From Candidatus Curtissbacteria bacterium (lineage in GTDB: Bacteria; Patescibacteriota; Microgenomatia; Curtissbacterales; GWA2-41-24), in contig JACPEV010000011.1 of assembly GCA_016183325.1 (NCBI GenBank), positions 36,782 through 100,781 of the forward strand: a DNA stretch of 64,000 bases. Direction: 5' to 3'. Made by a program: the position numbers and the translations under genes. Each line of letters begins with the position of its first letter. Positions within the stretch are counted from its first letter, which is position 1. The notes beneath the pieces are model-generated. The model was not told the DNA's origin and ran no database searches. It was given only the letters and a program-made list of their open reading frames with translations. Below, in pieces: positions 3,512 through 55,826 of this stretch.

Positions 3512-3899
3512 TTATTTTATTTTCGCTTCGCGAAAACCTAGGATTATCAATCCTAGGATGAAGCGAAGAGAAAACATACTTCCGAGAAAGTTTCGAGTTA
3601 GAACCGGAGCCGAATGATATGATTGGTGAAAACCGAGGGCTATTAGCCCTCGGAAGTTTATTTTTTCGAATTCATCTCTAGAGATATTTACATCTCTTAA
3701 AATTTTTCTAAGAAGTCCTATTCTAACATTTTCTCCAGAATGAACTGGTACGCTAGTTTTTCTGCCATCAGCATGTTCTAACCTAACATGACTGCCACTT
3801 TGACGGATCTTCATAGCATCCCTGCAGTTCTGGTACCTCTGCAATATACCATCCATCTTCGTCTTGTTCTATTAACACTTTAAACTGTAGGTCTTTCAT
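3512..3899 (-). pseudogene. hicA: Degenerate hicB–hicA toxin–antitoxin remnant (HicB N-terminal fragment frame-shifted onto a HicA-like C-terminal core)
   Basis: Frame 1 (3899→3783) reads MKDLQFKVLIEQDEDGWYIAEVPELQGCY..., a HicB N-terminal signature, then stops. The overlapping frame (3856→3512) reads ...MKIRQSGSHVRLEHADGRKTSVPVHSGENVRIGLLRKILRDVNISRDEF, a HicA core lacking its usual N-terminal ~15 aa, with a tail that runs through palindromic hairpins. Confidence 0.4.
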
Positions 3900-4130
3900 A
3901 TTAAACGAATTATACCACTAAAATATGTAGTTTGTCGGACTAGTTTCAGCTTTATAAATTAATATTTCATTTCATGATCAAAAGTTGCTGGATTCCAGCG
4001 TTTTAGGATAGAATCTACCGGTGGGAGCAGCGATTCGACTGAGCTCATCGTCGAAGTCTTGCCCTGCGTACTGAGCGAAGCCGGAGTATCGAAGGGTTCA
4101 AGATTTCTCGCTCCTATTCGTCCGGGGAAG

Positions 4131-4192
4131 GTTACAAAGAATGCTTATTTTGGATTATCTTAACAAGATTACGGGAGGAGCGTCCCTAATAG
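4131..4192 (+). repeat. Copy B of the ~58-nt conserved element, immediately 5' of the RBS (AAGGAGG) of the DUF4242 gene
   Basis: Matches 2251-2309 and ends in the GGGAGGAGCGTCCCTAAT motif. Confidence 0.6.
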
Positions 4193-4214
4193 TTAATTAA
4201 GGAGGTGATTACGG

Positions 4215-4463
4215 ATGGCTACGTTTATCGGAATTCATAAGTTTGATGCCGGTATTGGTGACGAGACGATTCGTGGAAAGTGGTCGAAATACAAAGATTC
4301 GTGTGCCAAGTTAAGCTTGAAGCCGGTTAATCTTTATCTCAATGGGGATCAAGGGGCTGCGTTTTGCATAACGGAAGCTTCAAATGGTGAAGAAGTGAGA
4401 AAAGCTCACGAAGATGCTGGTTTAACAGTGGATGAGGTAATTGAAGTTAGGGTGAGCGAGTGA
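4215..4463 (+). CDS. DUF4242-family small protein
   Basis: 82 aa. ...AAFCITEASNGEEVRKAHEDAGLTVDEVIEV matches the DUF4242 pattern (CLVEAP..E.V...H.EAHGL.ADEI.EV). Strong SD 9 nt upstream. Confidence 0.55.
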   Translation: MATFIGIHKFDAGIGDETIRGKWSKYKDSCAKLSLKPVNLYLNGDQGAAFCITEASNGEEVRKAHEDAGLTVDEVIEVRVSE

Positions 4464-11520: not shown

Positions 11521-12777
11521 TCAACTTTTGTTCAGTAGCAGTTGTTTTGAGCGTAAATTTCTGTGATAGGTTATGGCAAAGCGGTGGGCTTCATCTCGGA
11601 TTTCTTGGGCAAGTTGTCTTGCTGGACTTTCTTTTGGAAGAGAGATCGGCAAGGTTTTGTCCTTAGTGTAAATTTCTTCAAATCTTTTGGCAAGGGAGAT
11701 AACTTTTATTTCGAAATTAGATTTGGGTAAGGTTGACAAGACGGCATTTAGTTGGCCGCGTCCACCATCTATGATGATTAGTTGGGGTTTGGGCCAGTCA
11801 TTTTTAAATCTTCGTGACAAGATTTCTTTGAGCATTTGGTAGTCGTTTGGAGTGCTGGTAAGCTTGATTTTGAAACGGCGGTACTGAGATTTATCGCTTT
11901 TGCCATTAATAAAGACGACCATTGAGCCTGTGGCAAGTTTCCCGGAAATATTGGAGACATCGTAGCATTCAATCCTCTTTGGGATCTTTTCTAGTCCTAA
12001 CTGAGTTTTCAGAGCTTGGAGCCTTAGAGTGGTTAGATCATCTACAAGGGTGGGTTGTTCTAGAAATTCCCTGGGGGTTCGGAAACTTGCACCAAGAGAT
12101 TGAATTTTTTCTATTTGTTTTTTGATTTCATTTGCAGTTTCATATCTTTGTTCACCCGCGGCTTTTTTCATTTCTTTGGTCAACGATTTGATAAGTGGCT
12201 GGCTTTTTGTGGAAAGAAGGTCTTTGATTTTGCGGATTGTTTTTTGATATTTGATTTTGGAATCAGCATTTTCATAAGGGTATGGACAAAGTCTCAGGTG
12301 TACGTAAAGACAAGGTTTTTGGGGGTTTCTATGGTGGCAAAATGGGAAGATCCGTCTGATTATTTTTAAAATAGAGCGCGTTTCTTTGGTTGACGGAAAT
12401 GGTCCCTTTAAAAATTCGCCTCTTTTTTGTTTTTGTTTTCTTACAAGCTGGACTTGAGGAATTTCATCTTTGGTGACTTTGATATAGATCGGGCTTTTAT
12501 CGTCTTTGGCTTGTGAGTTGAAAAATGGTTGGTTAGTCCTTATGAGTTCGGCTTCAAGCAACAAAGCCTCGAATTCGGAAAATACTTTAATAAATTCAAC
12601 ATGATCGATTTTTGCAACCAAAAGACTCATTTTTGGGCCGAGATTTTTATTTGTAAAATATGATGCGACCCTTTTTTTTATCGATATTGATTTCCCTACG
12701 TAAAGCAGATTATTCTGTGCATTATAGAATTTGTAGATTCCCGGAGAATCTGGAAGGCTGTCTATGCTTGGTTTCAC
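11521..12777 (-). CDS. uvrC: Excinuclease ABC subunit C, short form (GIY-YIG plus C-terminal RNase H-like endonuclease domain)
   Basis: N-terminal PGIYKFYNAQNNLLYVGKSISIKKRVASYF (GIY-YIG). C-terminal LIIIDGGRGQLNA. At 418 aa it is shorter than canonical UvrC. Confidence 0.75.
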   Translation of the reverse strand: MKPSIDSLPDSPGIYKFYNAQNNLLYVGKSISIKKRVASYFTNKNLGPKMSLLVAKIDHVEFIKVFSEFEALLLEAELIRTNQPFFNSQAKDDKSPIYIKVTKDEIPQVQLVRKQKQKRGEFLKGPFPSTKETRSILKIIRRIFPFCHHRNPQKPCLYVHLRLCPYPYENADSKIKYQKTIRKIKDLLSTKSQPLIKSLTKEMKKAAGEQRYETANEIKKQIEKIQSLGASFRTPREFLEQPTLVDDLTTLRLQALKTQLGLEKIPKRIECYDVSNISGKLATGSMVVFINGKSDKSQYRRFKIKLTSTPNDYQMLKEILSRRFKNDWPKPQLIIIDGGRGQLNAVLSTLPKSNFEIKVISLAKRFEEIYTKDKTLPISLPKESPARQLAQEIRDEAHRFAITYHRNLRSKQLLLNKS

Positions 12778-14708
12778 AGAGGAGATTTTATCATTGGGTG
12801 AGGATTTTTTCTTTTCTTTATCTTTTTGTAGAGGTATAGTCCCGCACCTATGATTAGGATGGCAATTATGACGCTTAGCGCGGACTCGCGGATTAGTACT
12901 AGCTTAAAAATGGGCAGAATTGTTACGGGCCTGGAAATTTCTGATCCTGCATAGCTTATGATTAGCATATCTGTAGCAGTTTTGAAAAGTCCTGCAGATT
13001 GTAACCTGAACGTAAAGTTTTCCTGAGAATATGGAGGAAGGATTGGAATTGTTTGGGAGAAGGTATATCCTGACTCGCTTGAGGGTTTTTGTAGACTGCC
13101 AACTTTTTCAAGCTTTGAGGCTGTTAATTTTAGATCTTGGTTAATAATCGAGGTGGAACCGACATTTTTTATGCCTATTAAGATTCTTGTGGGTATACCA
13201 GATAAAATTTTTTCTTGAGCATTTAGAGTCAACTGAGGCGTAGATGTTGGTTCAGGTAAATCTTTAGCAAATTCTACAAAGACACTTTTTTGTTCAAGTT
13301 GGTTCTTTTTTTTGTAGGCACCGGCAGGATATGGACTTGTTGAGGATACACCTCTTTGGACGAAAGTAATGTGATTAAAGTCAAGCTTATTGAAAAAATC
13401 CAGCCCACCAGATGTTGACCCCCAAGTTGGGTCAACCTGGACCCAACCTAAATTGTCATCCCAATATTCAGGCCAAGCGTGCAAGATATCGCCTTTGTTT
13501 AAGCTTAAGGAAAGAGGTTTGAGGCGCTCGTTTTGCGTATAAGCGTAACCTTCCACTTCACGCGCAGGGATACTGGCAGCCCTGGCTAGAGCAATAAATA
13601 GGTCTGTGAATTCGGTGCAAACAGAATCTTTGGGTGAAGTGATACTTGACGCTGCTCCTTTTCTTTCGATTTTGTCAAGGTTAAGCCTTTCGTTACTATA
13701 TTTTAAAAAGTCAGCAACAAAATTGTAGATTTTTTCAGGCGTTTTCAACTCTTGCGCTTTATCTCGGATGAAAGCGTTGTCCGTTTCCCAATAAATCTGC
13801 GGTTGTGTGTAGAGTTGACGTTCTTCACTAGTTAGGCGAGAAAAAATATTCCTGAAGGGTTTTGAAAAAACTTCAACATAACCTGACGCAGTAATGTCTT
13901 TCTGTTCTTTGGGGGCCAATTTGTATTGGGCAAGAAAATTGCCATCCTTGTCGACCTTGACGTTTGAGGGAGGGGGTTCAACTTTTTCAAGAACCACTTT
14001 TTGATAATTGTTATCAGGCGGGAGAGTAATTGTGGCAAGTTGAGCTGTTAAGTTGTTATTCTCAATATGGTAATTAAGCTTGAACGCAAATATTTGTTTT
14101 TTGCCAAATGACATGGCAATGCCAGATTGAAAAAGTTGGTCTTTGTCAAAGGTGAATTCTTGTTGTAGGCCGGTGCGGTTTGAGCTTTTGGGAGCCGGAA
14201 CAGTTGTTGATAGCTCGCCGAAGGAATAAGGAATTAAAATTTTGGCCTCATAAGCGGTGATGTCGGGGTTTTTGGCGAGTCTGGGAATGGAAATATCCCA
14301 AATTTGGCCGGCTTTTGAGGCCAAGTCACTAGTGGTGTAAGTTAAGGTCCAAGGGAGAGTCTTATCAATTCCGATGACGCGTGCGTTGAAGCGGACGCTG
14401 ATGGTGGTAACGTTGTCATCGAATTTACTGGTTGTTTCCATCGGCCCCTCTTTGTCTTGGGCTTTGACGTTTTCTACTTGAGTAGAGCCGATTTTGAGTT
14501 CGAATTTGTCGGCATAACTATCGTTGGTTTTATTTTTAAGAGTGATGTTTTGGGTAATGTCAGTTTTTCCGTCATCTTTGACCAGGTAGCTCACTTTATA
14601 GGCAGTTTCAAATTCGCCTTGCGCGACTACGTCGCGAGTGATGAGTGATGAGTGATGAGTGATGAGTAAAAAAATAAGAATAAATAAGGACTTCAGAAGA
14701 TAACGCAT
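12774..14708 (-). CDS. Transglutaminase-like (Cys-His-Asp) domain protein with C-terminal TM anchor and signal peptide
   Basis: CTEFTDLFIALARAASIPAREVEGYAYT ... HAWPEYW ... GWVQVDPTWG. Overlaps the uvrC start by 4 nt. Confidence 0.7.
   Translation of the reverse strand: MRYLLKSLFILIFLLITHHSSLITRDVVAQGEFETAYKVSYLVKDDGKTDITQNITLKNKTNDSYADKFELKIGSTQVENVKAQDKEGPMETTSKFDDNVTTISVRFNARVIGIDKTLPWTLTYTTSDLASKAGQIWDISIPRLAKNPDITAYEAKILIPYSFGELSTTVPAPKSSNRTGLQQEFTFDKDQLFQSGIAMSFGKKQIFAFKLNYHIENNNLTAQLATITLPPDNNYQKVVLEKVEPPPSNVKVDKDGNFLAQYKLAPKEQKDITASGYVEVFSKPFRNIFSRLTSEERQLYTQPQIYWETDNAFIRDKAQELKTPEKIYNFVADFLKYSNERLNLDKIERKGAASSITSPKDSVCTEFTDLFIALARAASIPAREVEGYAYTQNERLKPLSLSLNKGDILHAWPEYWDDNLGWVQVDPTWGSTSGGLDFFNKLDFNHITFVQRGVSSTSPYPAGAYKKKNQLEQKSVFVEFAKDLPEPTSTPQLTLNAQEKILSGIPTRILIGIKNVGSTSIINQDLKLTASKLEKVGSLQKPSSESGYTFSQTIPILPPYSQENFTFRLQSAGLFKTATDMLIISYAGSEISRPVTILPIFKLVLIRESALSVIIAILIIGAGLYLYKKIKKRKNPHPMIKSPL
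14633..14667 (+). repeat. Heptanucleotide tandem repeat (ATGAGTG, ~4.7 copies) inside the 5' coding region (signal-peptide segment) of the transglutaminase-like gene
   Basis: Sequence is gagtg atgagtg atgagtg atgagtg atgagta. The unit length is not a multiple of 3. Confidence 0.8.
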
Positions 14709-14804
14709 TAAATCTAGTATCTAGGATTTAGTATTTGGTATCAAGTGTTTTTTGACAAGGAACATCCTTTGGGATTAAGGTTTGCTGAAAACCTACGTCG
14801 GACT

Positions 14805-29008: not shown

Positions 29009-31279
29009 CTAGTGACTAGCAACTAGTTTCTTTTCTGTTTCATAGATCAATTGTCTGGTATCATCAATCCGATCGGGATTAACTGAAATGGAAGAAATCC
29101 CCCATGAAATCAATTTTTCCACAAGCTCTGGGTAAACAGATGGAGCTTGGCCGCAGATAGAGCATAAAACTCGATTCTTAACACATGTTTTGACTACCTT
29201 TTCTAATGCCCAAAGAACGGCCTTGTCCATTTCATTAAACTGGCTGGCGACTTCTTCGTTGTCTCTGTCTGTTCCTAAGATCAGCATCGTTAAATCGTTA
29301 GAACCAATGGAGACTCCATCAATACCAAGTTTTAAAAACTGCTCAAGAAGTATGACATTTGCAGGAATTTCGGCCATCATCCAGAATTGAAAACTTGGAT
29401 CTTTAAACAAATTGGCCTCTTCTACCATCTCTTTGACATTTTTGAGTTCGTTTGGAGTTCTTACGAAGGGAATCATAAGTTGCAAATTTGGATGCTTTTG
29501 ACGAACTTGAAGAATGGCAGACAGTTCAAGTTTGAATACATCAGGGTCTTTTACGTATCGAAATGCTCCCCTGTAGCCTAACATGGGGTTTGCTTCTTTG
29601 GGTTCAAACTTATCCCCTCCTTTAAGGTCTTTATATTCGTTCGATTTAAGATCACTGGCTCTATAGATTACGGACCTTTCGCCGAAAGCTTTAGCAAAAA
29701 CAACTAGTTTATCTGACAGCATGTTTATAAAGTCCTCTTTTTTACCTTCTTTTAAAAATACCTTGGGATGAGTTCCGATTTCGGCAAGAATGAATTCTGC
29801 TCTTAAAAGTCCTATTCCGTCGACTGGCTTTGCAGCTATTTGGACGGCCATTTGAGGACTGGAGAGATTAACCAAAAGTTTTGTGGCAGTTTTAGTGACG
29901 AGACGAAGCGATTCTTTGTTGGCTAAATGTAGTTCTGAGGGCTTGAGCCTACTTCCTTCAAAAACCAAACCTTTGGCGCCATCGACGGTGACTGTCATAC
30001 CACTTTTGAGTTTGTGTGTTGCTCCCTCGGCGCCAACAATGCAAGAAATGCCAAATTCTCTGGCAACTATAGCGGCGTGTGAAGTACGTCCACCTTTTTC
30101 AGTAATAACAGCGGCAGCTTTTTTCATCGCTTGAACGTAATCTGGGTTGGTCATTTTTGCAACTAAAACATCACCTTTTTGGACTTTTGTTAGTTCTTTT
30201 GGTGAGTTTATGACTACGACTGTCCCTGTAGCAATTATTGGAGATGCAGGAGAACCTGTTAATATCGGCGAATGGTGAATAGTGAATGGTGAATGGATAG
30301 TTCCTCTGTCTTCCATTCTCAATTTTCCATTTTCCAGTGTGGTGACCGGCCGTGTTTGAACAATATATAACTTCTTATTCTCGTAAGCCCACTCGATATC
30401 TTGAGGGAAAAAATAATGTTTTTCTATTCTTGCGCCGAGCCTTGCAAGTTCAATAATTTTTTCATCCGGAAGTTTTTGGGTTTTTCTAAATTCCCTGGCG
30501 ATTGTTATCAGTTTATTGCCATTTTTACTCTTGACTAATTGTTTATCTTGGGACTGGATATTCTTTTTGGTTATTTGAAGCGTTTTTTTGTCGACTTCGT
30601 AGTGATCCGGTGTAACCTGTCCACTTACGATCAGTTCTCCAAGACCGAAGGCTGACTCTATAATTATTTTGCCTTTATCATTTGTAATTGGATCTACGGT
30701 AAACATAACCCCAGAAACCTCCGACTGGACCATTTTTTGAACAGGAACGGCGATGCCAACTTTAAAATGGTCAAATTTTTTTTGCACCCGGTAGAAAATG
30801 CTTCTGCCTTCAAAAAGTGAAGCCCACGTGGATAAAATTGCTTCTTTTAGCGCTTTTTTGCCTCGAATATTAAGAAAGGTTGCTTGCTGGCCAGCAAAGG
30901 AGGCACTAGGGAGGTCTTCCGCCGTTGCCGACGAACGAACAGCAACATAGTCTTTGCCTTGAGAAAGTTTGTTATAAAACGTGTCTATTTTACGCGCAAG
31001 CGCTGAATCTAATTGAATGTTTTTTATCTCTTTTTGAGCGCCTTCCGCAGCCTTTTGAAGTGCCAGGGGGTCGTCAACATTAAGACCATACAGAAGGCCT
31101 TTTATACGATCCAGCGCTCCTGAGGATCTGACGTTTTGGAAATACGCCTGAGAGGTAATTATAAAACCATTGGGAATCGGGATCTTAAATCGGGTGAGTT
31201 CGCCAAGATTAGCACCTTTACCACCAACGATCACACCGTCATTTTTGTCAACTTGTTCAAACCAAACAATATTTTCCAT
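29009..31279 (-). CDS. ppsA: Phosphoenolpyruvate synthase / pyruvate, water dikinase (PEP-utilising enzyme family)
   Basis: ATP-grasp N-domain, phosphohistidine region GGRTSHAAIVAREFGISCIVG and C-terminal PEP-utilising TIM barrel. An internal 7-nt repeat at 30270-30300 encodes an insert-like segment. Confidence 0.8.
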   Translation of the reverse strand: MENIVWFEQVDKNDGVIVGGKGANLGELTRFKIPIPNGFIITSQAYFQNVRSSGALDRIKGLLYGLNVDDPLALQKAAEGAQKEIKNIQLDSALARKIDTFYNKLSQGKDYVAVRSSATAEDLPSASFAGQQATFLNIRGKKALKEAILSTWASLFEGRSIFYRVQKKFDHFKVGIAVPVQKMVQSEVSGVMFTVDPITNDKGKIIIESAFGLGELIVSGQVTPDHYEVDKKTLQITKKNIQSQDKQLVKSKNGNKLITIAREFRKTQKLPDEKIIELARLGARIEKHYFFPQDIEWAYENKKLYIVQTRPVTTLENGKLRMEDRGTIHSPFTIHHSPILTGSPASPIIATGTVVVINSPKELTKVQKGDVLVAKMTNPDYVQAMKKAAAVITEKGGRTSHAAIVAREFGISCIVGAEGATHKLKSGMTVTVDGAKGLVFEGSRLKPSELHLANKESLRLVTKTATKLLVNLSSPQMAVQIAAKPVDGIGLLRAEFILAEIGTHPKVFLKEGKKEDFINMLSDKLVVFAKAFGERSVIYRASDLKSNEYKDLKGGDKFEPKEANPMLGYRGAFRYVKDPDVFKLELSAILQVRQKHPNLQLMIPFVRTPNELKNVKEMVEEANLFKDPSFQFWMMAEIPANVILLEQFLKLGIDGVSIGSNDLTMLILGTDRDNEEVASQFNEMDKAVLWALEKVVKTCVKNRVLCSICGQAPSVYPELVEKLISWGISSISVNPDRIDDTRQLIYETEKKLVASH

Positions 31280-33866: not shown

Positions 33867-33930
33867 TTTTCAAAGTATAGCATTTTTGACCTGACACATA
33901 TTGATATTTTAAAGTACTAGATTTGGTCTG

Positions 33931-34026
33931 TTGACATGAAATCTTTCATATATTATATTGTCCCATGCTTATCGCAAGATAGGCAATTTGAAAGGGCTTC
34001 TCGCAAGAGAGGCCTTTTCTTTTTTG
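33931..34026 (+). ncRNA. Candidate small RNA module 1: TTGACA-N17-TATATT promoter, GNRA-tetraloop hairpin (CTTATCgcaaGATAGG), intrinsic terminator (GGGCTTCTCgcaaGAGAGGCC plus T-run)
   Basis: Complete promoter-to-terminator unit of ~60 nt with no ORF, on the strand opposite to the flanking genes. Paralogous to 34586-34678. Confidence 0.45.
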
Positions 34027-34027
34027 A

Positions 34028-34077
34028 TGGTAGAAGGTAGAAGATAGAAGATGGAATGTGAGGATAGAAGGTAGACA
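34028..34077 (+). repeat. Iteron-like array of (G/A)(G/A)TAGAA heptamers (GATGGTAGAA GGTAGAA GATAGAA GATGGAA ... GATAGAA GGTAGAC)
   Basis: Tandem motif array immediately 3' of the four-helix-bundle gene. An inverted counterpart lies at 34488-34552. Confidence 0.6.
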
Positions 34078-34485
34078 TTAGAAAGATTTCCAGTTCCTGC
34101 GAAGATTTGTTAATTTACCACCTAGCATTTGATATCTTTTAAGTAAAGCCTCGCAAAAATCTTTTTCCCAATAGTTTAAATCTCTTGCTGTATCTATGTG
34201 CACTTCCATTTCATTTGCAGACCCAAGTAAACTGTCAAGGTGTTTTTTAAATTCCTTCTCGAATCTTCTCTTCGCCCATCCTTCAGCAATGTTAGAGGGG
34301 CAAGATTTTGAAGCTCTTCTCATTTGCGATGCCAAATCGTTTCTCTCGTAAACAGGAAATTTCTCAACTGCTTTATGGACAATCAGCATCAGCTGGTAAG
34401 CCTCTTGGTATACTTCGAGGTCGCGAAAACTCTTGATCATTTTGCTTTTAAGGAAAGGGTTGCACTTTCTATCGGTACATTTCAA
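34078..34485 (-). CDS. Four-helix-bundle protein (TIGR02436 / PF05635 '23S rRNA-intervening-sequence protein' family, Avd-like fold)
   Basis: FRDLEVYQEAYQLMLIVHKAVEKFP...ERNDLASQMRRASKSCPSNIAEGWAKR matches the family signature. Confidence 0.8.
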   Translation of the reverse strand: MKCTDRKCNPFLKSKMIKSFRDLEVYQEAYQLMLIVHKAVEKFPVYERNDLASQMRRASKSCPSNIAEGWAKRRFEKEFKKHLDSLLGSANEMEVHIDTARDLNYWEKDFCEALLKRYQMLGGKLTNLRRNWKSF

Positions 34486-34487
34486 AT

Positions 34488-34552
34488 CTATACTCTATCA
34501 TCAAAATCTACCGTCTACCCTCAATCATCTATCATCTAATTATGATTGATCT
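34488..34552 (+). repeat. Inverted copy of the GGTAGA/GATAGA iteron array (reads TCTACC/TCTATC on the plus strand)
   Basis: atctaccgtctaccctcaatcatctatcatcta. With 34028-34077 it forms inverted terminal arrays bracketing the four-helix-bundle gene. Confidence 0.55.
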
Positions 34553-34585
34553 AAATTGATATTCTTAGGTACTAGATTTGGTCTG

Positions 34586-34678
34586 TTGACAAGGGTCGTT
34601 TACTAGTATATATTTGTCGATGCTTATCGCAAGATAGGCAATGAAAGGGCTTAGGGGGTAACTCTTAAGCCTTTTCTT
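34586..34678 (+). ncRNA. Candidate small RNA module 2: TTGACA-N17-TATATT promoter, identical hairpin ATGCTTATCGCAAGATAGGCAAT, terminator GGGCTTAGggggtaactCTTAAGCC plus T-run
   Basis: Paralog of 33931-34026. Lies in the upstream (5') region of the four-helix-bundle gene but on the opposite strand. Confidence 0.45.
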
Positions 34679-34681
34679 CAT

Positions 34682-35392
34682 TTAGAAATACCTCAGCGTA
34701 CTTGACATGTCCCCTAGAATTTTTTCATAATTTGCGACGTTGTCTTTGGCATCCAGCTGTTGGTAATAAAGAACGAGAGGTGTTTGAGAATCGAAAATTA
34801 AAAAACTTAATTTTTCAAATCCTCGTGGAATCGTGCCGGCTCCCGTGGCCACAGATCTAATTTTTTTAACCGATCTACCATCTATAACGATGCTTACACT
34901 TGAAAGAATACTTTGAAAGTCGTTGGGATTATCATAAAATTTAACCGTTGAGAGCCAGTCTTCTATTTTTACTGGTTCAATTCTGACGGGTACAATATTG
35001 TTTTGGGTTTTAGAATTGACTACAAATGAAAACGGCGCAAAAAAAGTGCATTTTTGTTCCTCTAGGTCATATGTTGTAAACCAGTCCTTGGGATAAGCTA
35101 CTTCGAAACCGTAAAGGGTGTTTGAACAAAGCTTGACAAATGAGGAGATAACAGTTCCAGACTGAACGTCCGTGCCGGGAAGCGGCTGCTCAATTGTATT
35201 GTCAGCAGCCTTATTTTCAATTTTAGATCTTAGAATTTGCCCAAAATCCGAATTCTTTCCAAGAATGAAAAATATGAGGCCATAGACAACGAGGAAAATT
35301 AAAATTGATGTTACTTTAAGGTATTTCTTAAGATTTAAAAGCGTGAGATTTATAAGCGTCAACTTACTCTCCCTTAATTCAGGATAAAGCAA
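34682..35392 (-). CDS. Hypothetical membrane-anchored protein
   Basis: 236 aa with an N-terminal TM helix. No domain recognised. Confidence 0.45.
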   Translation of the reverse strand: MLYPELRESKLTLINLTLLNLKKYLKVTSILIFLVVYGLIFFILGKNSDFGQILRSKIENKAADNTIEQPLPGTDVQSGTVISSFVKLCSNTLYGFEVAYPKDWFTTYDLEEQKCTFFAPFSFVVNSKTQNNIVPVRIEPVKIEDWLSTVKFYDNPNDFQSILSSVSIVIDGRSVKKIRSVATGAGTIPRGFEKLSFLIFDSQTPLVLYYQQLDAKDNVANYEKILGDMSSTLRYF

Positions 35393-37504: not shown

Positions 37505-37954
37505 TAGATATGTATTTTAAGTTAATGATCGTAAAATTAGCAATTAGACATCTTGATTTTCGGGTTTTCTTTGGATAGAATAACTATATTAAAAATCAAA
37601 ACTCAAAAATCAAAATTACATTCAAGAAATTTGTACTTGATCCCCATAATTTTGATATTTGATATTTAATATTTGGTATGGCTTCTGACACATTTATCAA
37701 CGAACAAGTATCCGTCTGGGCTTTTTTTGACCCTTCGGCGGCGTCATCTCATATTTTCCCAATTGCCATGAATTGGCGAAGACGACTTGTCAAATTCCAA
37801 AAATTAATCCTTTCGACAACTAAAAGAGTTGGCGATGCAAAAATACTGAACTTAATTTGTGCTTCCGATACTGCCTGCTTTGAGCTTGAATATAACTCTG
37901 ACAGCCACTTGTGGAGACTAGTGAAAGTAATGAGTCAGGAGTAACGAAGAAAAT

Positions 37955-38092
37955 TGATGATAGACGGTAGAAAATAGATGGTAGATATAGATAATAGAAA
38001 ATAGATGGTAGAAGGTTGATATTCTATCTTCAAACTTCTATCATCAAAATCCATTATCTAGCTTCAACCGTCTACCATCAAACGTCAGATCT
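37955..38092. promoter_or_regulatory. Palindromically arranged GGTAGA/GATAGA iteron array upstream of dinB (direct half ~37958-38015, inverted half ~38023-38090)
   Basis: GATGATAGAC GGTAGAA AATAGAT GGTAGAT ... ATAGATGGTAGAAGG / ...TCTATCTTC...TTCTATCATC...CCGTCTACCATC. Shares the AGATGGTAGAAGGT core with 34028-34077. Confidence 0.55.
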
Positions 38093-41251: not shown

Positions 41252-41333
41252 TCAATCGAGATAATAGTGAATAGAAAATGGAAAATAGTCTAGTCACCAA
41301 GACCAGGAAAAAAGCCTAGCAATTTTACCACAA

Positions 41334-45013: not shown

Positions 45014-46681
45014 ATGGAAGTTCTCGAGACTATTCCAATAAATATTAGGGACCAACATAACTTACTTAATCTTCTTGCTGAAAGCTATAAAAGCTTAAAT
45101 AAAGCTTTAATGGAGTATATAGATAATTCTTTTGATAGTGCAGATGACTATTACGATGATGTTTTAGGGAGGTATCAACGTGATGTTGCTATTATCATTA
45201 CCATCGATCGAGCAAATAATACAATATCAGTCCTTGATAATTGTAATGGCATGGACTTGGAAATTCTGAAGGGATTAGCTAATAGTATTAATGATTCAGA
45301 AAAACGTCGACGAGCGCAAAAGAGACCATGGGTTAATGGTCAATTCGGACTTGGAGCTCATGCTTATCGTTTTTTTGCTCAAAAGCTACGCGTAATTACC
45401 AAGAAAAAAAATTCATCTACTGGTGCAATCTCTATTGATCGTGATGAGCCCGATGCGAAACTTATTAAACCATACAAATCTATATCGAATGATAGTGGTA
45501 CTTTTGTTGAGCTCTCGGATATCGATCGACAACAGATCAAGCGTTTAAATATCCAAGAACTCAAGAGAGACATTGAAACGTACTTCGAAATGCTACTTCG
45601 TAGAAATGTTGCAATAACGATCCGCGATGATGATCAAGTATCTGTATGCGAAAGTTTCGATTATGATCAACTCGAGGGGATTCCTATTCAAAAAGTAATA
45701 ACCAGTTGGCATCGTGGTTCGGCAACCCTTAGTTATCCTGATTCAGCTCGCGGAATTCATATAAATCTTAAAGTTTGCACAAAAAAAATGGACAGACCAC
45801 CGTTTTTTTCACGCAAAGGAAGACGAATTAATTACATTTCGCACATGGATTCATTTATTCGAAAAACCGAACACCGAAAGAAGGTCTGGGAGAACTACTA
45901 CCTAACAGGATATATTGAGGTTGGCGACAATTTAGAACCTATTATTACGCGTGACGATTTTATGGGTGGTAAAGGTAAAACAGCGACGCGCAGCGGTATT
46001 TATGAAGAAATTGTTAAAGTTGAAGATGATATTTACGCAGCAATTGAACAGGTCAATCGCGATAGAAGCGATGAAAATTTTCGTAAGCTAGCTTCAGTAT
46101 TGACAGAACTTTTGACAGAAATCACTAAAGAAGAAGATCTTAGAATTCGTCATGAAAATAAAGATGGTCAAAGAAACGAACAACCATGGGTTTCCGTGTC
46201 ACCGGATCCCGGGGAAGGTGAAGAATATGATATTAAGAGTAATGGTAATAATCGACCCGGAGATAAGCCAAAAATCAGCGTAGTAACTCCTGATTTAGAG
46301 GGAGAGCTGATGGGCCGTAAACGTGAGCGCGAAAAACAAGGTATTAGGATTGAGTTTAGTACGTTACCCGTCGTAGAGGGAGATCGCCGTACACATTTTG
46401 GCGACAGCGTTATTACTATTTTTACAAATCATCCGGATTTTTCAGAACGTAGAGGTCGTGGAGATCTTGAACAAATTATTATCAATCCCCGACTAGCCAA
46501 TTATTTAGCTGCAATAATCTCTTCAGAATATAAAGAAGTTTTTTACAATTTAAAGAAATTGGAACCTGATCGAAAAAAAGTTCTCGATGAACAGATAGAA
46601 TTTATTTTTCGTTTCGAGGAAAAACTGAAAAACTACATTAATCAACCGCTTGACGCCCTGGGAAACGTTACTCGCAGCTAA
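45014..46681 (+). CDS. GHKL (Bergerat-fold) ATPase of MutL/MORC/Hsp90 type with a ~350-aa C-terminal region of unknown function
   Basis: N-box LMEYIDNSFDSAD, G1 VLDNCNGMD, G2 GQFGLGAHAYRF, G3 SGTFVELSD. Confidence 0.7.
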   Translation: MEVLETIPINIRDQHNLLNLLAESYKSLNKALMEYIDNSFDSADDYYDDVLGRYQRDVAIIITIDRANNTISVLDNCNGMDLEILKGLANSINDSEKRRRAQKRPWVNGQFGLGAHAYRFFAQKLRVITKKKNSSTGAISIDRDEPDAKLIKPYKSISNDSGTFVELSDIDRQQIKRLNIQELKRDIETYFEMLLRRNVAITIRDDDQVSVCESFDYDQLEGIPIQKVITSWHRGSATLSYPDSARGIHINLKVCTKKMDRPPFFSRKGRRINYISHMDSFIRKTEHRKKVWENYYLTGYIEVGDNLEPIITRDDFMGGKGKTATRSGIYEEIVKVEDDIYAAIEQVNRDRSDENFRKLASVLTELLTEITKEEDLRIRHENKDGQRNEQPWVSVSPDPGEGEEYDIKSNGNNRPGDKPKISVVTPDLEGELMGRKREREKQGIRIEFSTLPVVEGDRRTHFGDSVITIFTNHPDFSERRGRGDLEQIIINPRLANYLAAIISSEYKEVFYNLKKLEPDRKKVLDEQIEFIFRFEEKLKNYINQPLDALGNVTRS

Positions 46682-53339: not shown

Positions 53340-53550
53340 AGTTATTAGAAAGCTTGCTTCGAGCAAGTTCTCTTGCGAGAAGTGGAAAGTGGTATTGGAA
53401 ATCAGAAGTGGGAAATGGTTGAAAATGAATTTTCCATTTTCAATTTTCCACTTTCCATTACTGCTTTCAAACTTCCAAAAACCATTTTCAAAATTCATCC
53501 CTTATTTCTTCATACTTGATACTTAATACTTGATACTTAATACTTAAGAT
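53340..53550. repeat. Intergenic array: inverted GGAAAGTGG/GGAAATGG motif blocks (53380-53470) followed by a 4x ATACTTRAT tandem repeat (53508-53546)
   Basis: tggaaagtgg...gtgggaaatgg // ccattttcaattttccactttcca; then atacttgatacttaatacttgatacttaatactta. Confidence 0.6.
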
Positions 53551-53552
53551 AT

Positions 53553-54893
53553 ATGCGCATTTTTTTCTACGGGGCGTGCAGGGAAGTTACGGGATCGAAT
53601 ATTTTGGTGGAGGTTGCAGGCAAAAAAATTCTTCTTGATTGCGGTATTTTCCAGGGCAGTCGGATGGCAGAGGAAAGGAATTATTCACCTTTTGTGTTTG
53701 ATGCAAAAAGTATCGATGTGGTAGTGGTTTGTCACGCTCATCTGGACCATACTGGCAGATTACCAAAACTGGTAAAAGACGGTTTTCGCGGAAAAATTTA
53801 TGCAACTGCCCCGACTGCTCAGTTAACCGAGCTGGTGCTTGATGATAGCGAAAAGCTGATGAGGGAAGAATCCCAGAGGGATAACCATCCACCGCTTTAC
53901 GGTCCTGCAGAAATTGAGACGACGATGGAGCTTTTTACCACAATCCCTTACGACGAAGGCGTTGAAATTTCTCCCGGTATTAAAATTACCCTGAAAAACG
54001 CCGGACATATTCTTGGATCTTCTGTTTTAATTTTAGAAACTGAAGGAAAAACTCTTGTTTATACAAGCGATCTTGGCAATGCACCATCTGAGCTTTTATC
54101 TCCTCCTGAAAGGATTGAAAAAGCAGATTTTGTGATTTCGGAAACAACTTATGGCGGTAGAGTTCACGAAGATATCACTAAACGTCATGCGAAGTTAAAT
54201 TCGATAATTAACTCCACAATTTCCGAAAACGGTGTTTTAATGATTCCGACATTTGCCATTGAGCGCACTCAAGAGTTACTTCACGATATAGAGCATTTTT
54301 GTACGATCGCCAATTGCACGATCCCGACTTTTTATTTAGATAGTCCGTTGGCGGAAAAGGTGACTCGTGTTTTTCAAAAGTATCCTGAATATTTAAATCC
54401 CAGGCTTAATCTTGCCCATGATAATGATATTTTTGGACTCTCTCGCTTACGGATCACTTCAACTGTCGATGCGTCGAAACAAATTGATGATGCGCCTAAC
54501 CCTAAGATAATTATAGCCGGATCAGGTATGATGAACGGAGGAAGAATTTTATACCATCTGCAAAATTATATCGGTGATGCCAACAGCACACTTTTAATAG
54601 TAAGTTATCAGTCTGGCGGCACTTTGGGCAGACGACTTATCGACGGGGAGAAAGTTATTAAGATTTTTGGTAAAAAGTATAACGTTGCCGCAAATGTCGT
54701 GGCCATTGGATCTTACAGCGCTCATGCTGATGCTCCACAGCTTTTAAGGTGGCTTTCTACTATTTCGGGCGTCAAGAAAATCTTTTTGGTTCATGGGGAG
54801 GGTGATCAGGCGCTGGCTTTCGGCGAGTCGGTGAAGGAAAAAATGGGTGTTGATGTTATCATTCCGCAACAGGGAGAAATGTATGAATTATGA
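53553..54893 (+). CDS. MBL-fold β-CASP RNA-metabolising hydrolase (RNase J-like)
   Basis: VVCHAHLDHTGRLP (HxHxDH), β-CASP motifs downstream, C-terminal H in LVHGE. Confidence 0.8.
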   Translation: MRIFFYGACREVTGSNILVEVAGKKILLDCGIFQGSRMAEERNYSPFVFDAKSIDVVVVCHAHLDHTGRLPKLVKDGFRGKIYATAPTAQLTELVLDDSEKLMREESQRDNHPPLYGPAEIETTMELFTTIPYDEGVEISPGIKITLKNAGHILGSSVLILETEGKTLVYTSDLGNAPSELLSPPERIEKADFVISETTYGGRVHEDITKRHAKLNSIINSTISENGVLMIPTFAIERTQELLHDIEHFCTIANCTIPTFYLDSPLAEKVTRVFQKYPEYLNPRLNLAHDNDIFGLSRLRITSTVDASKQIDDAPNPKIIIAGSGMMNGGRILYHLQNYIGDANSTLLIVSYQSGGTLGRRLIDGEKVIKIFGKKYNVAANVVAIGSYSAHADAPQLLRWLSTISGVKKIFLVHGEGDQALAFGESVKEKMGVDVIIPQQGEMYEL

Positions 54894-55031: not shown

Positions 55032-55697
55032 ATGGCTAAAATAATACCGGGAATTTTAACAAATAGCGAAGAGGAGTATCATGAGCGGCTTCTTAAGGCC
55101 GAACACGTCAGCGACTTAATTCAAATTGATGTGGTGGACGGCAAATTCTCTGCCAATACTACAATCCAAACGGACGTTATTAAAAAATATCTTTCTTCAG
55201 CCCAACTTGAAATTCAACTAATGGTTGTTTTTCCTCAAAACTACATTGATGATCTAGCACCTTTAGAATACGTTTCCAGAATTATTTTCCCTTTTGAAAT
55301 TCATGGGGACGTTCGAGACGATATCTACTTAATCAAGAGATTCGGTAAACAAGCCGGAATTTCGCTAAACCCCGAAACCCCAGTTAAAGCTGCTATCCAT
55401 TTTTTTGACGATATAGACATCTTGCTTTTGATGACTGGTAAACCCGGATATTCAGGCCAAAAGTTGGGTGAGGACACTTACGATAGAATTAAAGAGGTTA
55501 AGAAAATAGTTCCTGATTTACCTATCGAAATCGATATTGGTGTTAACTTTGAAAACGCAGCAAAACTTGCTCACGCAGGAGCTGATTTTTTAGTTGCTTC
55601 GAGTGCTCTTTATGGCGCGCCCGATTTTAGAGTCGCTTATGAGAAACTTGCCAAATTGGCGGAAGTTAATGAAAAGAAAATGGTTGCTGGAAAGTAG
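55032..55697 (+). CDS. rpe: Ribulose-phosphate 3-epimerase-like
   Basis: LIQIDVVDGKFSANTTI and LLLMTGKPGYSGQKL resemble Rpe motifs. Divergent. Confidence 0.65.
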   Translation: MAKIIPGILTNSEEEYHERLLKAEHVSDLIQIDVVDGKFSANTTIQTDVIKKYLSSAQLEIQLMVVFPQNYIDDLAPLEYVSRIIFPFEIHGDVRDDIYLIKRFGKQAGISLNPETPVKAAIHFFDDIDILLLMTGKPGYSGQKLGEDTYDRIKEVKKIVPDLPIEIDIGVNFENAAKLAHAGADFLVASSALYGAPDFRVAYEKLAKLAEVNEKKMVAGK

Positions 55698-55826
55698 AAA
55701 ATAGTAATAGAAAGTAGAAATGGGAAATTAGAAATTTAACTCTTAACTATTTTCCAATCTCAAATTTCCATTACCATTTTCAAGTCTCTAGTTAACCAAT
55801 TTCTAGTACTTTGTTAATATTAAATT
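55698..55826. repeat. Intergenic inverted array of GAAAGTAGAAA/GGGAAATTAGAAAT motifs
   Basis: gaaagtagaaaatagtaatagaaagtagaaatgggaaattagaaat // attttccaatctcaaatttccattaccattttcaag. Confidence 0.55.

Follow-up and report, generated by a model that had tools for sequence, protein, structure and literature searches.

In the 64,000-nucleotide stretch of a Candidatus Curtissbacteria contig analysed here (the window), a single gene of the four-helix-bundle family PF05635/TIGR02436 lies on the minus strand between two arrays of 7-nucleotide repeats in inverted orientation. We found this repeat bracket to be a conserved feature of the gene family and the unit of arm, gene and arm to be self-contained. 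The anatomy is conserved across phyla, the arms form a covarying helix in the relatives that reside in rRNA introns, the protein is under purifying selection and the arms are constrained as well. On balance, we favour the reading that the window copy is a free-standing cassette of the intervening sequence (IVS) type, with arms that pair in the transcript as an insulating or processing stem.

The gene extends over 34078..34440 on the minus strand and encodes 120 amino acids followed by a TAA stop. On both sides, Tandem Repeats Finder detected an array with a period of 7, at 34029-34075 in the 3' arm (6.9 copies, consensus GGTAGAA) and at 34486-34538 in the 5' arm (7.7 copies, consensus ATCTATC). 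The borders of the 3' arm were set to 34026..34077 (gene on the minus strand) from the repeat search, the sequence, the inverted repeats I1-I8 and the 88% identity to the arm of the orthologue L081, and those of the 5' arm to 34486..34540 (same strand) from the repeat search, the sequence and the complementarity to the 3' arm. When read on the gene strand, the 5' arm is purine-rich (TAGATGA TAGATGA TTGAGGG TAGACGG TAGATTT TGATGA TAGAGTA TAGATTT), and the 3' arm is a pyrimidine-rich array (...TCTACC TTCTATC ... CATCAA) in which CATCAA is the outer terminus; the plus strand of the 3' arm reads TTGATGG TAGAAGG TAGAAGA TAGAAGA TGGAATG ... TAGAAGG TAGAC. In register, each arm has 8-9 units consisting of a T(A/T/G)GA core and 3 variable bases, and the stop codon of the gene shares bases with the last unit of the 3' arm. 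The window has a base composition of 40% G+C, and the only tandem period enriched across its whole length is 7, with the multiple 14. The two arms are inverted-complementary in segments of 17-23 nt (78-89%), and their best local alignment had 37 matches in 53 positions with a score of 50, whereas shuffled arms reached a mean of 26 and a maximum of 35.5. The preliminary description of this sequence, which had placed inverted GGTAGA/GATAGA arrays on both sides of a single PF05635/TIGR02436 gene between 34028 and 34552, was therefore confirmed, except that the 5' array stops at about 34540 and does not include 34541-34552.

Between the 5' arm and the ATG lies a leader (34441..34485, minus strand) that was delimited by pairwise alignment of the window with L081, a 93%-identical orthologue. 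About 34 nt of the leader (34441-34474) are missing from L081, and the open reading frame (ORF) originally proposed with a TTG start crosses this segment. The true start is the ATG at 34440 and not the TTG at 34485, because nearly all listed homologues have 120 residues and begin with MIK(S/T)F. A search with Rfam found no rRNA in the window, in line with the earlier view that the gene is free-standing; the neighbours are xseA and a gene for a 236-aa protein. The copy is hence not within an rRNA gene as a classical IVS would be, whereas its ORF does lie between terminal inverted repeats that are capable of forming a stem, although a weak one (z = -2.7). When the arms and the adjacent small RNA were compared with Rfam, nothing significant was obtained (best match 27 bits, gathering score 80).

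Relatives of the gene were collected by a scan of one genome per species, which gave 79 loci with 38-83% identity. Among 80 homologous loci, which are not phylogenetically independent, inverted-complementary flanks with a score of at least 40 were present at 70 of the 80 family genes (88%), as compared to 9 of 304 control ORFs (3%) obtained by naive ORF calling in the same loci (Mann-Whitney p 7e-35). All flanking arrays above the strict detection threshold had a period of either 7 (78 arrays) or 8 (17 arrays). Strong period-7 arrays were counted 51 times in 387 kb of family loci from the candidate phyla radiation (CPR) and 5 times in 353 kb of other CPR DNA, a set of loci fetched for an unrelated reason, corresponding to an about 9-fold higher density around the family genes. 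No neighbouring protein family was common to more than 16 of the 80 loci. The taxon labels given by the depositors to several of the metagenome-assembled genome records (e.g. "uncultured Gammaproteobacteria") are probably wrong for these CPR-like contigs.

These numbers bear on the alternative that heptamer arrays are general in the intergenic DNA of this genome and that the gene lies between two of them by chance. Indeed, the window contains at least six other arrays or hairpins without a PF05635 gene (14636-14746, 30262-30340, 37586-37679, 37954-38081, 53380-53556 and 55680-55780). It had been pointed out beforehand, with the dinB locus in mind, that arrays common outside the family would make the bracket coincidental. 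Gene-less hairpins thus exist, yet the association with the family is overwhelming. Since inverted flanks occur at 88% of the family genes and 3% of the controls and the arrays are enriched about 9-fold, we consider the bracket not to be a coincidence. The same architecture in many phyla and the arms conserved between species despite a dS of ~1 also speak against chance, which makes this explanation very improbable.

In nearly all CPR copies, the gene orientation reads TTGA(T/G/C)G-nTAGAn-... upstream and ...-nTCTAn-C(A/C/G)TCAA downstream. Distant copies with 38-50% identity from Omnitrophota, Planctomycetota, Elusimicrobia, Flavobacteriales and others follow the same plan with the units GCAAGAA, GTCAGAA and the 8-mer GTAAGGAA. 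Likewise, divergent second paralogues in the CPR loci (29-40% identity) are flanked by inverted arrays with units such as AACAGT, ATGAATC, CGGTTTT and GCGTCTA. Altogether, the architecture was seen in CPR, Planctomycetota, Omnitrophota, Elusimicrobia, Bacteroidota, Cyanobacteriota, Alphaproteobacteria and Gemmatimonadota. Plasmids searched with tblastn gave 42 records, mostly cyanobacterial, and PF05635 genes on cyanobacterial plasmids are flanked by heptamer arrays, which are inverted in the Nostoc and Leptolyngbya copies; the Gemmatirosa copy is preceded by a complete hairpin and followed by a matching array. In the literature searched, we found no description of a family-wide repeat bracket, and only the heptamers of Coxiella link the family to flanking tandem repeats.

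The window protein and its L081 orthologue differ with a dN/dS of 0.03 at a dS of ~1. The identity between their arms, counted by hand on the alignment, is ~73% for the 5' arm and ~88% for the 3' arm. Because the dN/dS is this low and the arms are still similar at such a dS, selection appears to constrain the protein as well as the arms.

The relatives inside rRNA genes were analysed for the RNA structure of the arms. Rfam placed three loci (L012, L013 and L014) in 16S rRNA genes and one (L005) in a 23S rRNA gene. The 16S sequence of L012 is split at AAGTCGTAA^CAAGGTA, and the 3' flank of the cassette matched a group I intron with 35.4 bits and an E value of 4.7e-7, below the gathering score. 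Intron core motifs were recognised in eight further loci, resulting in 12 rRNA/intron loci. The closest relatives of the window protein, with 62-83% identity, sit in such rRNA insertions, here group I introns, which supports the earlier assignment of the gene to the family that occurs in rRNA intervening sequences. In these copies the arms extend the intron's own stem GGGAAGUCGGUU/AACUUGACCCC.

When the rRNA/intron copies were folded with RNAalifold, 43 pairs were obtained with 93% of the cells paired, and 14 pairs showed compensatory changes. The sense strand was more stable than the antisense strand by 9.8 kcal/mol (11 of the 12 copies, p 0.0015), and the arm hairpin energy was -60.9 kcal/mol in comparison to -46.6 kcal/mol for free-standing copies (p 2e-5). 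From the covariation and the stability, we conclude that the helix is real in the rRNA and intron RNAs. Over all 80 loci, hairpins made of the arms only had a mean z of -5.1 against shuffles, with 59 of 80 below -3. The compensatory changes were confined to the 3-nt spacers, whereas the UAGA:UCUA cores, one every 7 bp, were invariant. Since the cores do not vary while the spacers covary, the cores are constrained beyond what pairing asks for.

A neighbour-joining tree of the proteins, drawn without bootstrap, shows the rRNA-located and the free-standing copies interleaved, which indicates repeated moves between the two contexts. The window protein groups with L002, L005 and L007 from rRNA genes and with the free-standing L003. 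In two loci, a single rRNA gene harbours two PF05635 cassettes, each in a group I intron-like insertion of its own, at 4001-4360 and 6479-6850 in L013 and at 3730-4089 and 4661-5020 in L042. The two L013 proteins share 75% and 29% identity with the query, and their repeat units differ, being of the TAGA and the AACAGT type; both copies in L042 are equally similar to the query. ORFs of the LAGLIDADG type (...LAGFVDGEGSF...) were noticed less than 4 kb from the cassette in the rRNA-context loci L002, L013, L030 and L041, and the cassettes of these four loci are thus close to classical homing-endonuclease genes.

The reading favoured here would work as follows. On transcription, the purine-rich 5' array would pair with the pyrimidine-rich 3' array to a helix of ~50-60 bp with the ORF in the loop, closing the insert off from the host RNA. 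The helix would present a double-stranded site for the host RNase III, as in the characterised IVSs, and the ORF-bearing RNA would be released. Each arm consists of 7-8 phased units, in which a core of 4 nt that does not vary (UAGA in this lineage) is joined to a spacer of 3 nt. The cores are probably recognition points for an oligomeric binder, and the encoded protein would be the most economical candidate. Whether taken as continued use of the stem, cleavage by RNase III or binding of the repeats by the protein, each step for the window copy is deduced from its sequence and its relatives.

Several results weigh against this reading. The arm hairpin of the window is marginal at the z value given above, and its antisense strand folds better than the sense strand (-51.3 vs -39.3 kcal/mol). 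The whole window cassette folds like its shuffles (z = -0.24), though the minimum-energy fold pairs the arms. Free-standing copies showed no bias for the sense strand (23 of 46), and no consensus helix was called for these 46 copies, where the alignment was ambiguous in register and hence uninformative. Over all loci, mismatches of the G:U type and of the A:C type were equally frequent (358 vs 341). The 3' arm of the same locus was scarcely a better partner for a 5' arm (score 56) than the 3' arms of other loci (47.7, sd 13.7). Finally, arrays in direct orientation, for which no stem is possible, were found in at least three loci (L065, Pseudanabaena and Oscillatoria).

Four further interpretations of the arms were tried and rejected. 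The small difference between own-arm and cross-locus partners is too weak a signal to show that both arms of a locus evolve in concert. A global wobble asymmetry was discarded as a proof of an RNA stem, since the mismatches are symmetric over all loci and the strand bias is found in the rRNA-located copies only. A translational insulator, in which three xTAGAxx units would place stop codons in all three frames, does not agree with the units GCAAGAA, GTCAGAA and GGAGCAG of other lineages, which contain no stop codon. A sigma-70 promoter within the arrays was dismissed by inspection, because the 7-nt phase spaces TTGAnn and TAGAnn by 15 or 22 nt and not by 16-18 nt; a promoter scan of the window also found no promoter-like site in the arms.

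The exception in Pseudanabaena lies on plasmid pPg_01 of P. galeata (L137). Here, the PF05635 gene at 46268-46627 is located between cas6 and cas4, with ~18 AAAAGCT units upstream and ~10 AAAAGCC units downstream in direct orientation. Zhang and Ye (PMC3936711) described 18 such genes inside cas loci, and the Pseudanabaena arrangement fits with these.

The window copy was then compared to the known elements of the family. The IVS in helix 45 of the Coxiella 23S rRNA has an S23p ORF and terminal inverted repeats that form a stem of 28 bp; three tandem GACAGAT heptamers, the number of which varies between strains, precede the ATG, and RNase III cleaves at the first repeat (PMC4990558). The ORF of this element is in decay, whereas its IVS RNA is retained (PMC4990558). 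An Azospirillum lipoferum plasmid (AZO_p2) has a 41%-identical ORF within a 23S rRNA gene between inverted GGACAGA arrays, and this insertion is a classical IVS. The window copy resembles the 23S IVSs with an S23p/PF05635 ORF of Leptospira, Coxiella and Azospirillum in the protein family and in having the ORF in the loop of a terminal-repeat stem, and, like Coxiella (GACAGAT) and Azospirillum (GGACAGA), it has purine-rich tandem heptamers upstream of the ATG. In contrast to them, it is located outside rRNA, between protein-coding genes and two small-RNA genes, and its stem is weaker. Its ORF is under strong purifying selection, whereas the Coxiella ORF decays, and the Coxiella stem is an RNase III substrate, whereas processing of the window stem is a prediction. 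ORFs of the 23S_rRNA_IVP type have been reported in 16S and 23S rRNA insertions of CPR bacteria (Tsurumaki et al. 2024, PMC11270868), in agreement with an earlier study cited there. These insertions belong to the same phylum-level group and protein family as the window copy, which differs by lying outside rRNA. A term search of that paper found the ORF described, with no mention of heptamers or tandem repeats.

The arrays of the family are also like the short tandemly repeated repetitive (STRR) sequences of heterocystous cyanobacteria, which are tandem heptanucleotide arrays in non-coding DNA. STRR heptamers also occur within helix P12 of the RNase P RNA. The classical STRR units, CCCCAGT and others, differ from the units seen here, and no published link between STRR sequences and the PF05635 family was found in the literature searched.

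The protein was assigned to its family by Pfam, NCBIfam, its homologues and an AlphaFold2 model. It matched PF05635 with an E value of 9.5e-26 and 90.5 bits (cut-off 33.8) and TIGR02436 with 1.8e-25 and 89.3 bits (cut-off 24). At least 120 homologues were among the matches listed, with nearly all of them 120 aa long, 74-93% identical and starting with MIK(S/T)F. The window protein carries the family motif R-x3-S-x3-N-x2-E (RRASKSCPSNIAEG), in which R42, S46 and E53 are invariant among 36 homologues and N50 is nearly so. The conserved motif described for the family is GxxRxxxSxxxNxxE (PMC3936711); its R-x3-S-x3-N-x2-E part is present here, and the leading G is replaced by Q39. The AlphaFold2 model has a pLDDT of 91.7 and four helices at residues 5-27, 30-56, 61-87 and 93-116. 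Its best fold matches in the PDB were Xcc0516 (2GSC, TM 0.83-0.88) and BT_0352 (2RLD, TM 0.75-0.87), and phmmer aligned the window protein to 2GSC with an E value of 3.4e-13. The predicted structure is thus an up-and-down four-helix bundle of the ~110-120 aa type represented by these two proteins, whose PDB entries contain five chains (A-E) each. The window protein is basic with a pI of 9.3.

These properties lead to an alternative in which the arrays are primarily phased binding sites, iteron-like in DNA or TRAP-like in RNA, for an oligomer of the encoded protein, with the inverted orientation and the helix being secondary. Binding would then let the protein control its own gene, hold the two arms together or label the element. 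For the iteron-type borders of the preliminary description, the evidence shows an RNA helix in the rRNA-located relatives, and the invariant phased cores leave room for a binder. In 58 CPR loci, TNGA cores were spaced by exactly 7 nt in 332 of ~435 intervals of the 5' arms and in 310 of ~383 intervals of the 3' arms; the median number of units was 8 for 5' arms and 7 for 3' arms, and the positions 5-7 were nearly uninformative. Invariant cores between covarying spacers are more than pairing needs, and the period of 7 or 8 is kept across phyla though the unit sequences are unrelated. The unit shifts with the protein lineage (TAGA, AACAGT, ATGAATC, GGACAGA, GGAGCAG and GTAAGGAA), but the protein and the unit would also change together by simple co-inheritance. 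The arrays in direct orientation at three loci also speak for this view, and the gene for the basic, strongly conserved protein is the only one always present. 2GSC and 2RLD are five-chained, and Avd is a nucleic-acid-binding pentamer, but the arms have 7-8 units against the five chains in the crystals. The conservation of the cores could also stem from a host factor, and the decay of the Coxiella ORF with persistence of its IVS RNA (PMC4990558) does not favour a binding role of the protein. By analogy, TRAP also recognises a short core at a fixed phase with uninformative spacers, which would go along with the five-chained PF05635 structures; the analogy is a pure one, and the TRAP fold is unrelated to the PF05635 bundle.

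Because the fixed phase, the period shared across phyla and the occasional direct arrays exceed the needs of a stem, a repeated recognition element is indicated, and from their sequence pattern the phased cores may be binding sites for the encoded protein. That binding is the primary role of the arrays we hold for possible rather than probable. A tentative extension of similar standing is that the PF05635 protein and the phased repeats are a co-evolving pair. An oligomer would recognise the invariant core every 7 (or 8) nt on both arms and clamp them into a helix, rendering the insert harmless in rRNAs, introns and operons, and the gene-less heptamer hairpins of the same genomes would be relics of this system or its landing sites.

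To our knowledge, no function is known for PF05635 proteins outside the diversity-generating retroelements (DGRs). The genes are very common and often multi-copy. They have been found in rRNA genes, introns, CRISPR loci and plasmids; almost always, they travel with two arrays of phased 7-8-nt repeats, which in rRNA contexts form a covarying helix with invariant cores. The anonymous ORF thereby becomes a defined element with a stem and a repeat code, which can be assayed for RNase III processing and for protein binding, respectively. The arm helix would explain why such rRNA insertions are tolerated. For annotation, it should be noted that the flanking repeats belong to the PF05635 gene, and some of the heptamer (STRR-like) repeats that are unexplained in bacterial genomes may be accounted for in this way. 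If the protein and the repeats do form a pair, the "IVS protein", unexplained since 1993, would obtain a function, and a widespread class of small selfish cassettes would have its own RNA- or DNA-binding factor.

As a further alternative, the arms might be the terminal inverted repeats of a mobile element that spreads at the DNA level by recombination or transposition, with the gene-less hairpins as derivatives similar to miniature inverted-repeat transposable elements (MITEs) or as landing pads. The gene-less hairpin at 37954..38081 (plus strand), located between an 88-aa ORF and dinB, belongs to the same GGTAGA/GATAGA motif family, and its termini match those of the cassettes (TTGATGATAGACGGTAGA ... 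TCTACCATCAA), so that cassettes and hairpin have the defined ends TTGA(T/G/C)G...C(A/C/G)TCAA in common. At the orthologous dinB site, however, L081 has a shorter hairpin made from another heptamer (TTGACAA/GTCAAAT). The position is kept and the unit is replaced, which looks like turnover in place rather than insertion. In favour of mobility are the variety of unrelated sites in which the cassette is inserted, among them two kinds of rRNA gene, the mixing of rRNA-located and free-standing copies in the protein tree, the missing strand bias of the free-standing copies and the PF05635 genes wedged among cas genes (PMC3936711 and the Pseudanabaena plasmid). On the other hand, no target-site (short direct) duplication was visible at the intron insertion sites, and the fold-search matches of the window protein included no recognisable nuclease or recombinase fold. 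Near-identical recent copies at different sites were not seen, no relatives were found in viral contigs, and long direct repeats flank the cassette in the window and L081 only. MITEs and REP-type hairpins are similar in that gene-less intergenic hairpins share their termini with a gene-bearing element, but a transposase, a REP-associated tyrosine transposase (RAYT) and target duplications are lacking here, and the arms are phased tandem arrays instead of unique inverted repeats. We therefore regard a DNA-level mobile element as unlikely.

In L017, L020, L029, L045 and L052, divergent PF05635 paralogues are found directly 3' of one conserved gene for a hydrophobic protein (C-terminus ...LQIIGVDILKIPGF). 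The heptamer unit differs from paralogue to paralogue, and the site is either a recurrent insertion site or an old syntenic one.

The gene had also been called Avd-like, and it could accordingly be the Avd accessory protein of a DGR. PF05635 is the Pfam family that Avd resembles (PMC10053308), and both are four-helix bundles of ~120 aa within the same broad family. The likeness holds at the level of the fold only, since Avd (4DWL) appeared at rank 39 of the fold search with TM values of 0.60/0.66 and an E value of 0.65, behind Xcc0516. No reverse transcriptase and no pair of template and variable repeats adjoins the window gene. In L081, no reverse transcriptase was found within 5 kb, the neighbours being rhomboid, dinB, xseA, xseB, holA-like and ppsA-like genes, and no neighbour gene recurs across the loci. 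A DGR function of this gene is thus extremely unlikely.

Outside the cassette, the window contains two copies of a small-RNA gene on the plus strand, copy A at 33900..34027 and copy B at 34555..34681. They form a direct repeat of 127-128 bp with a TTGACA-17-TATATT promoter (11/12 matches; 33931-33959 in copy A and 34586-34614 in copy B), a hairpin GCTTATCGCAAGATAGGC and a terminator-like hairpin. For copy A, an RNA of ~60 nt is predicted from ~33966 with the hairpin GCUUAUC-GCAA-GAUAGGC followed by the terminator hairpin GGGCUUCUC-GCAA-GAGAGGCC-UUUUCUUUUUU. Copy B has the same promoter and first hairpin, and its terminator hairpin has diverged with compensating changes; it occupies the ancestral position and is oriented convergently to the 236-aa gene, whose end is at 34682. 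A 21-mer of the first hairpin was found in 47 metagenome stretches (L087-L133), and all of them have a strong promoter TTTTGGGGGGTTGACA-17-TGTATAAA and the RNA UGCUUAUCGCAAGAUAGGCAACUUGAAAGGGCUUCUCGCAAGAGAGGCCUUUUCUUUU, nearly base for base. The gene usually occurs as a single copy, apparently preceded by the start of a divergent gene and followed by the end of a convergent one. A PF05635 gene beside the small-RNA gene was seen in none of the 47 stretches, and in three a distant homologue was 2.5-3 kb away. Among 76 loci, the small-RNA gene is duplicated around the cassette only in the window and in L081, and the 127-bp flanking duplication was therefore rejected as a general integration signature. 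The flanking small-RNA modules noticed in the preliminary description are real, but they are not part of the cassette; the two genes belong to the host, and the cassette happens to be located between them. The small RNA had no Rfam match and looks like an undescribed CPR small-RNA family. A weak divergent promoter may be present on the reverse strand of each copy.

The remaining arrays and hairpins of the window are built from other units. They are located at 14636-14667 and 14712-14746, 37586-37679, 53380-53460 and 53497-53556, 55680-55780 and 41259-41288, mostly at gene boundaries, with the units GAGTGAT, ATCTAGT, AAAAATC/TTTGATA, GGAAAGT, CTTAATA and GAAAGTA. The array at 14636-14667 falls into the first codons of the called ORF 12774-14708. 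An inverted heptamer pair (GAATGGT / TTCCATT) at 30262-30340 is in frame within the ORF 29009-31279 on the minus strand. It encodes ...ENGKLRMEDRGTIHSPFTIHHSP... in the linker of a PEP-utilising enzyme (ppsA/PPDK-like) that joins the N-terminal to the phosphohistidine domain, and the linker of the L082 orthologue is similar in length but not in sequence.

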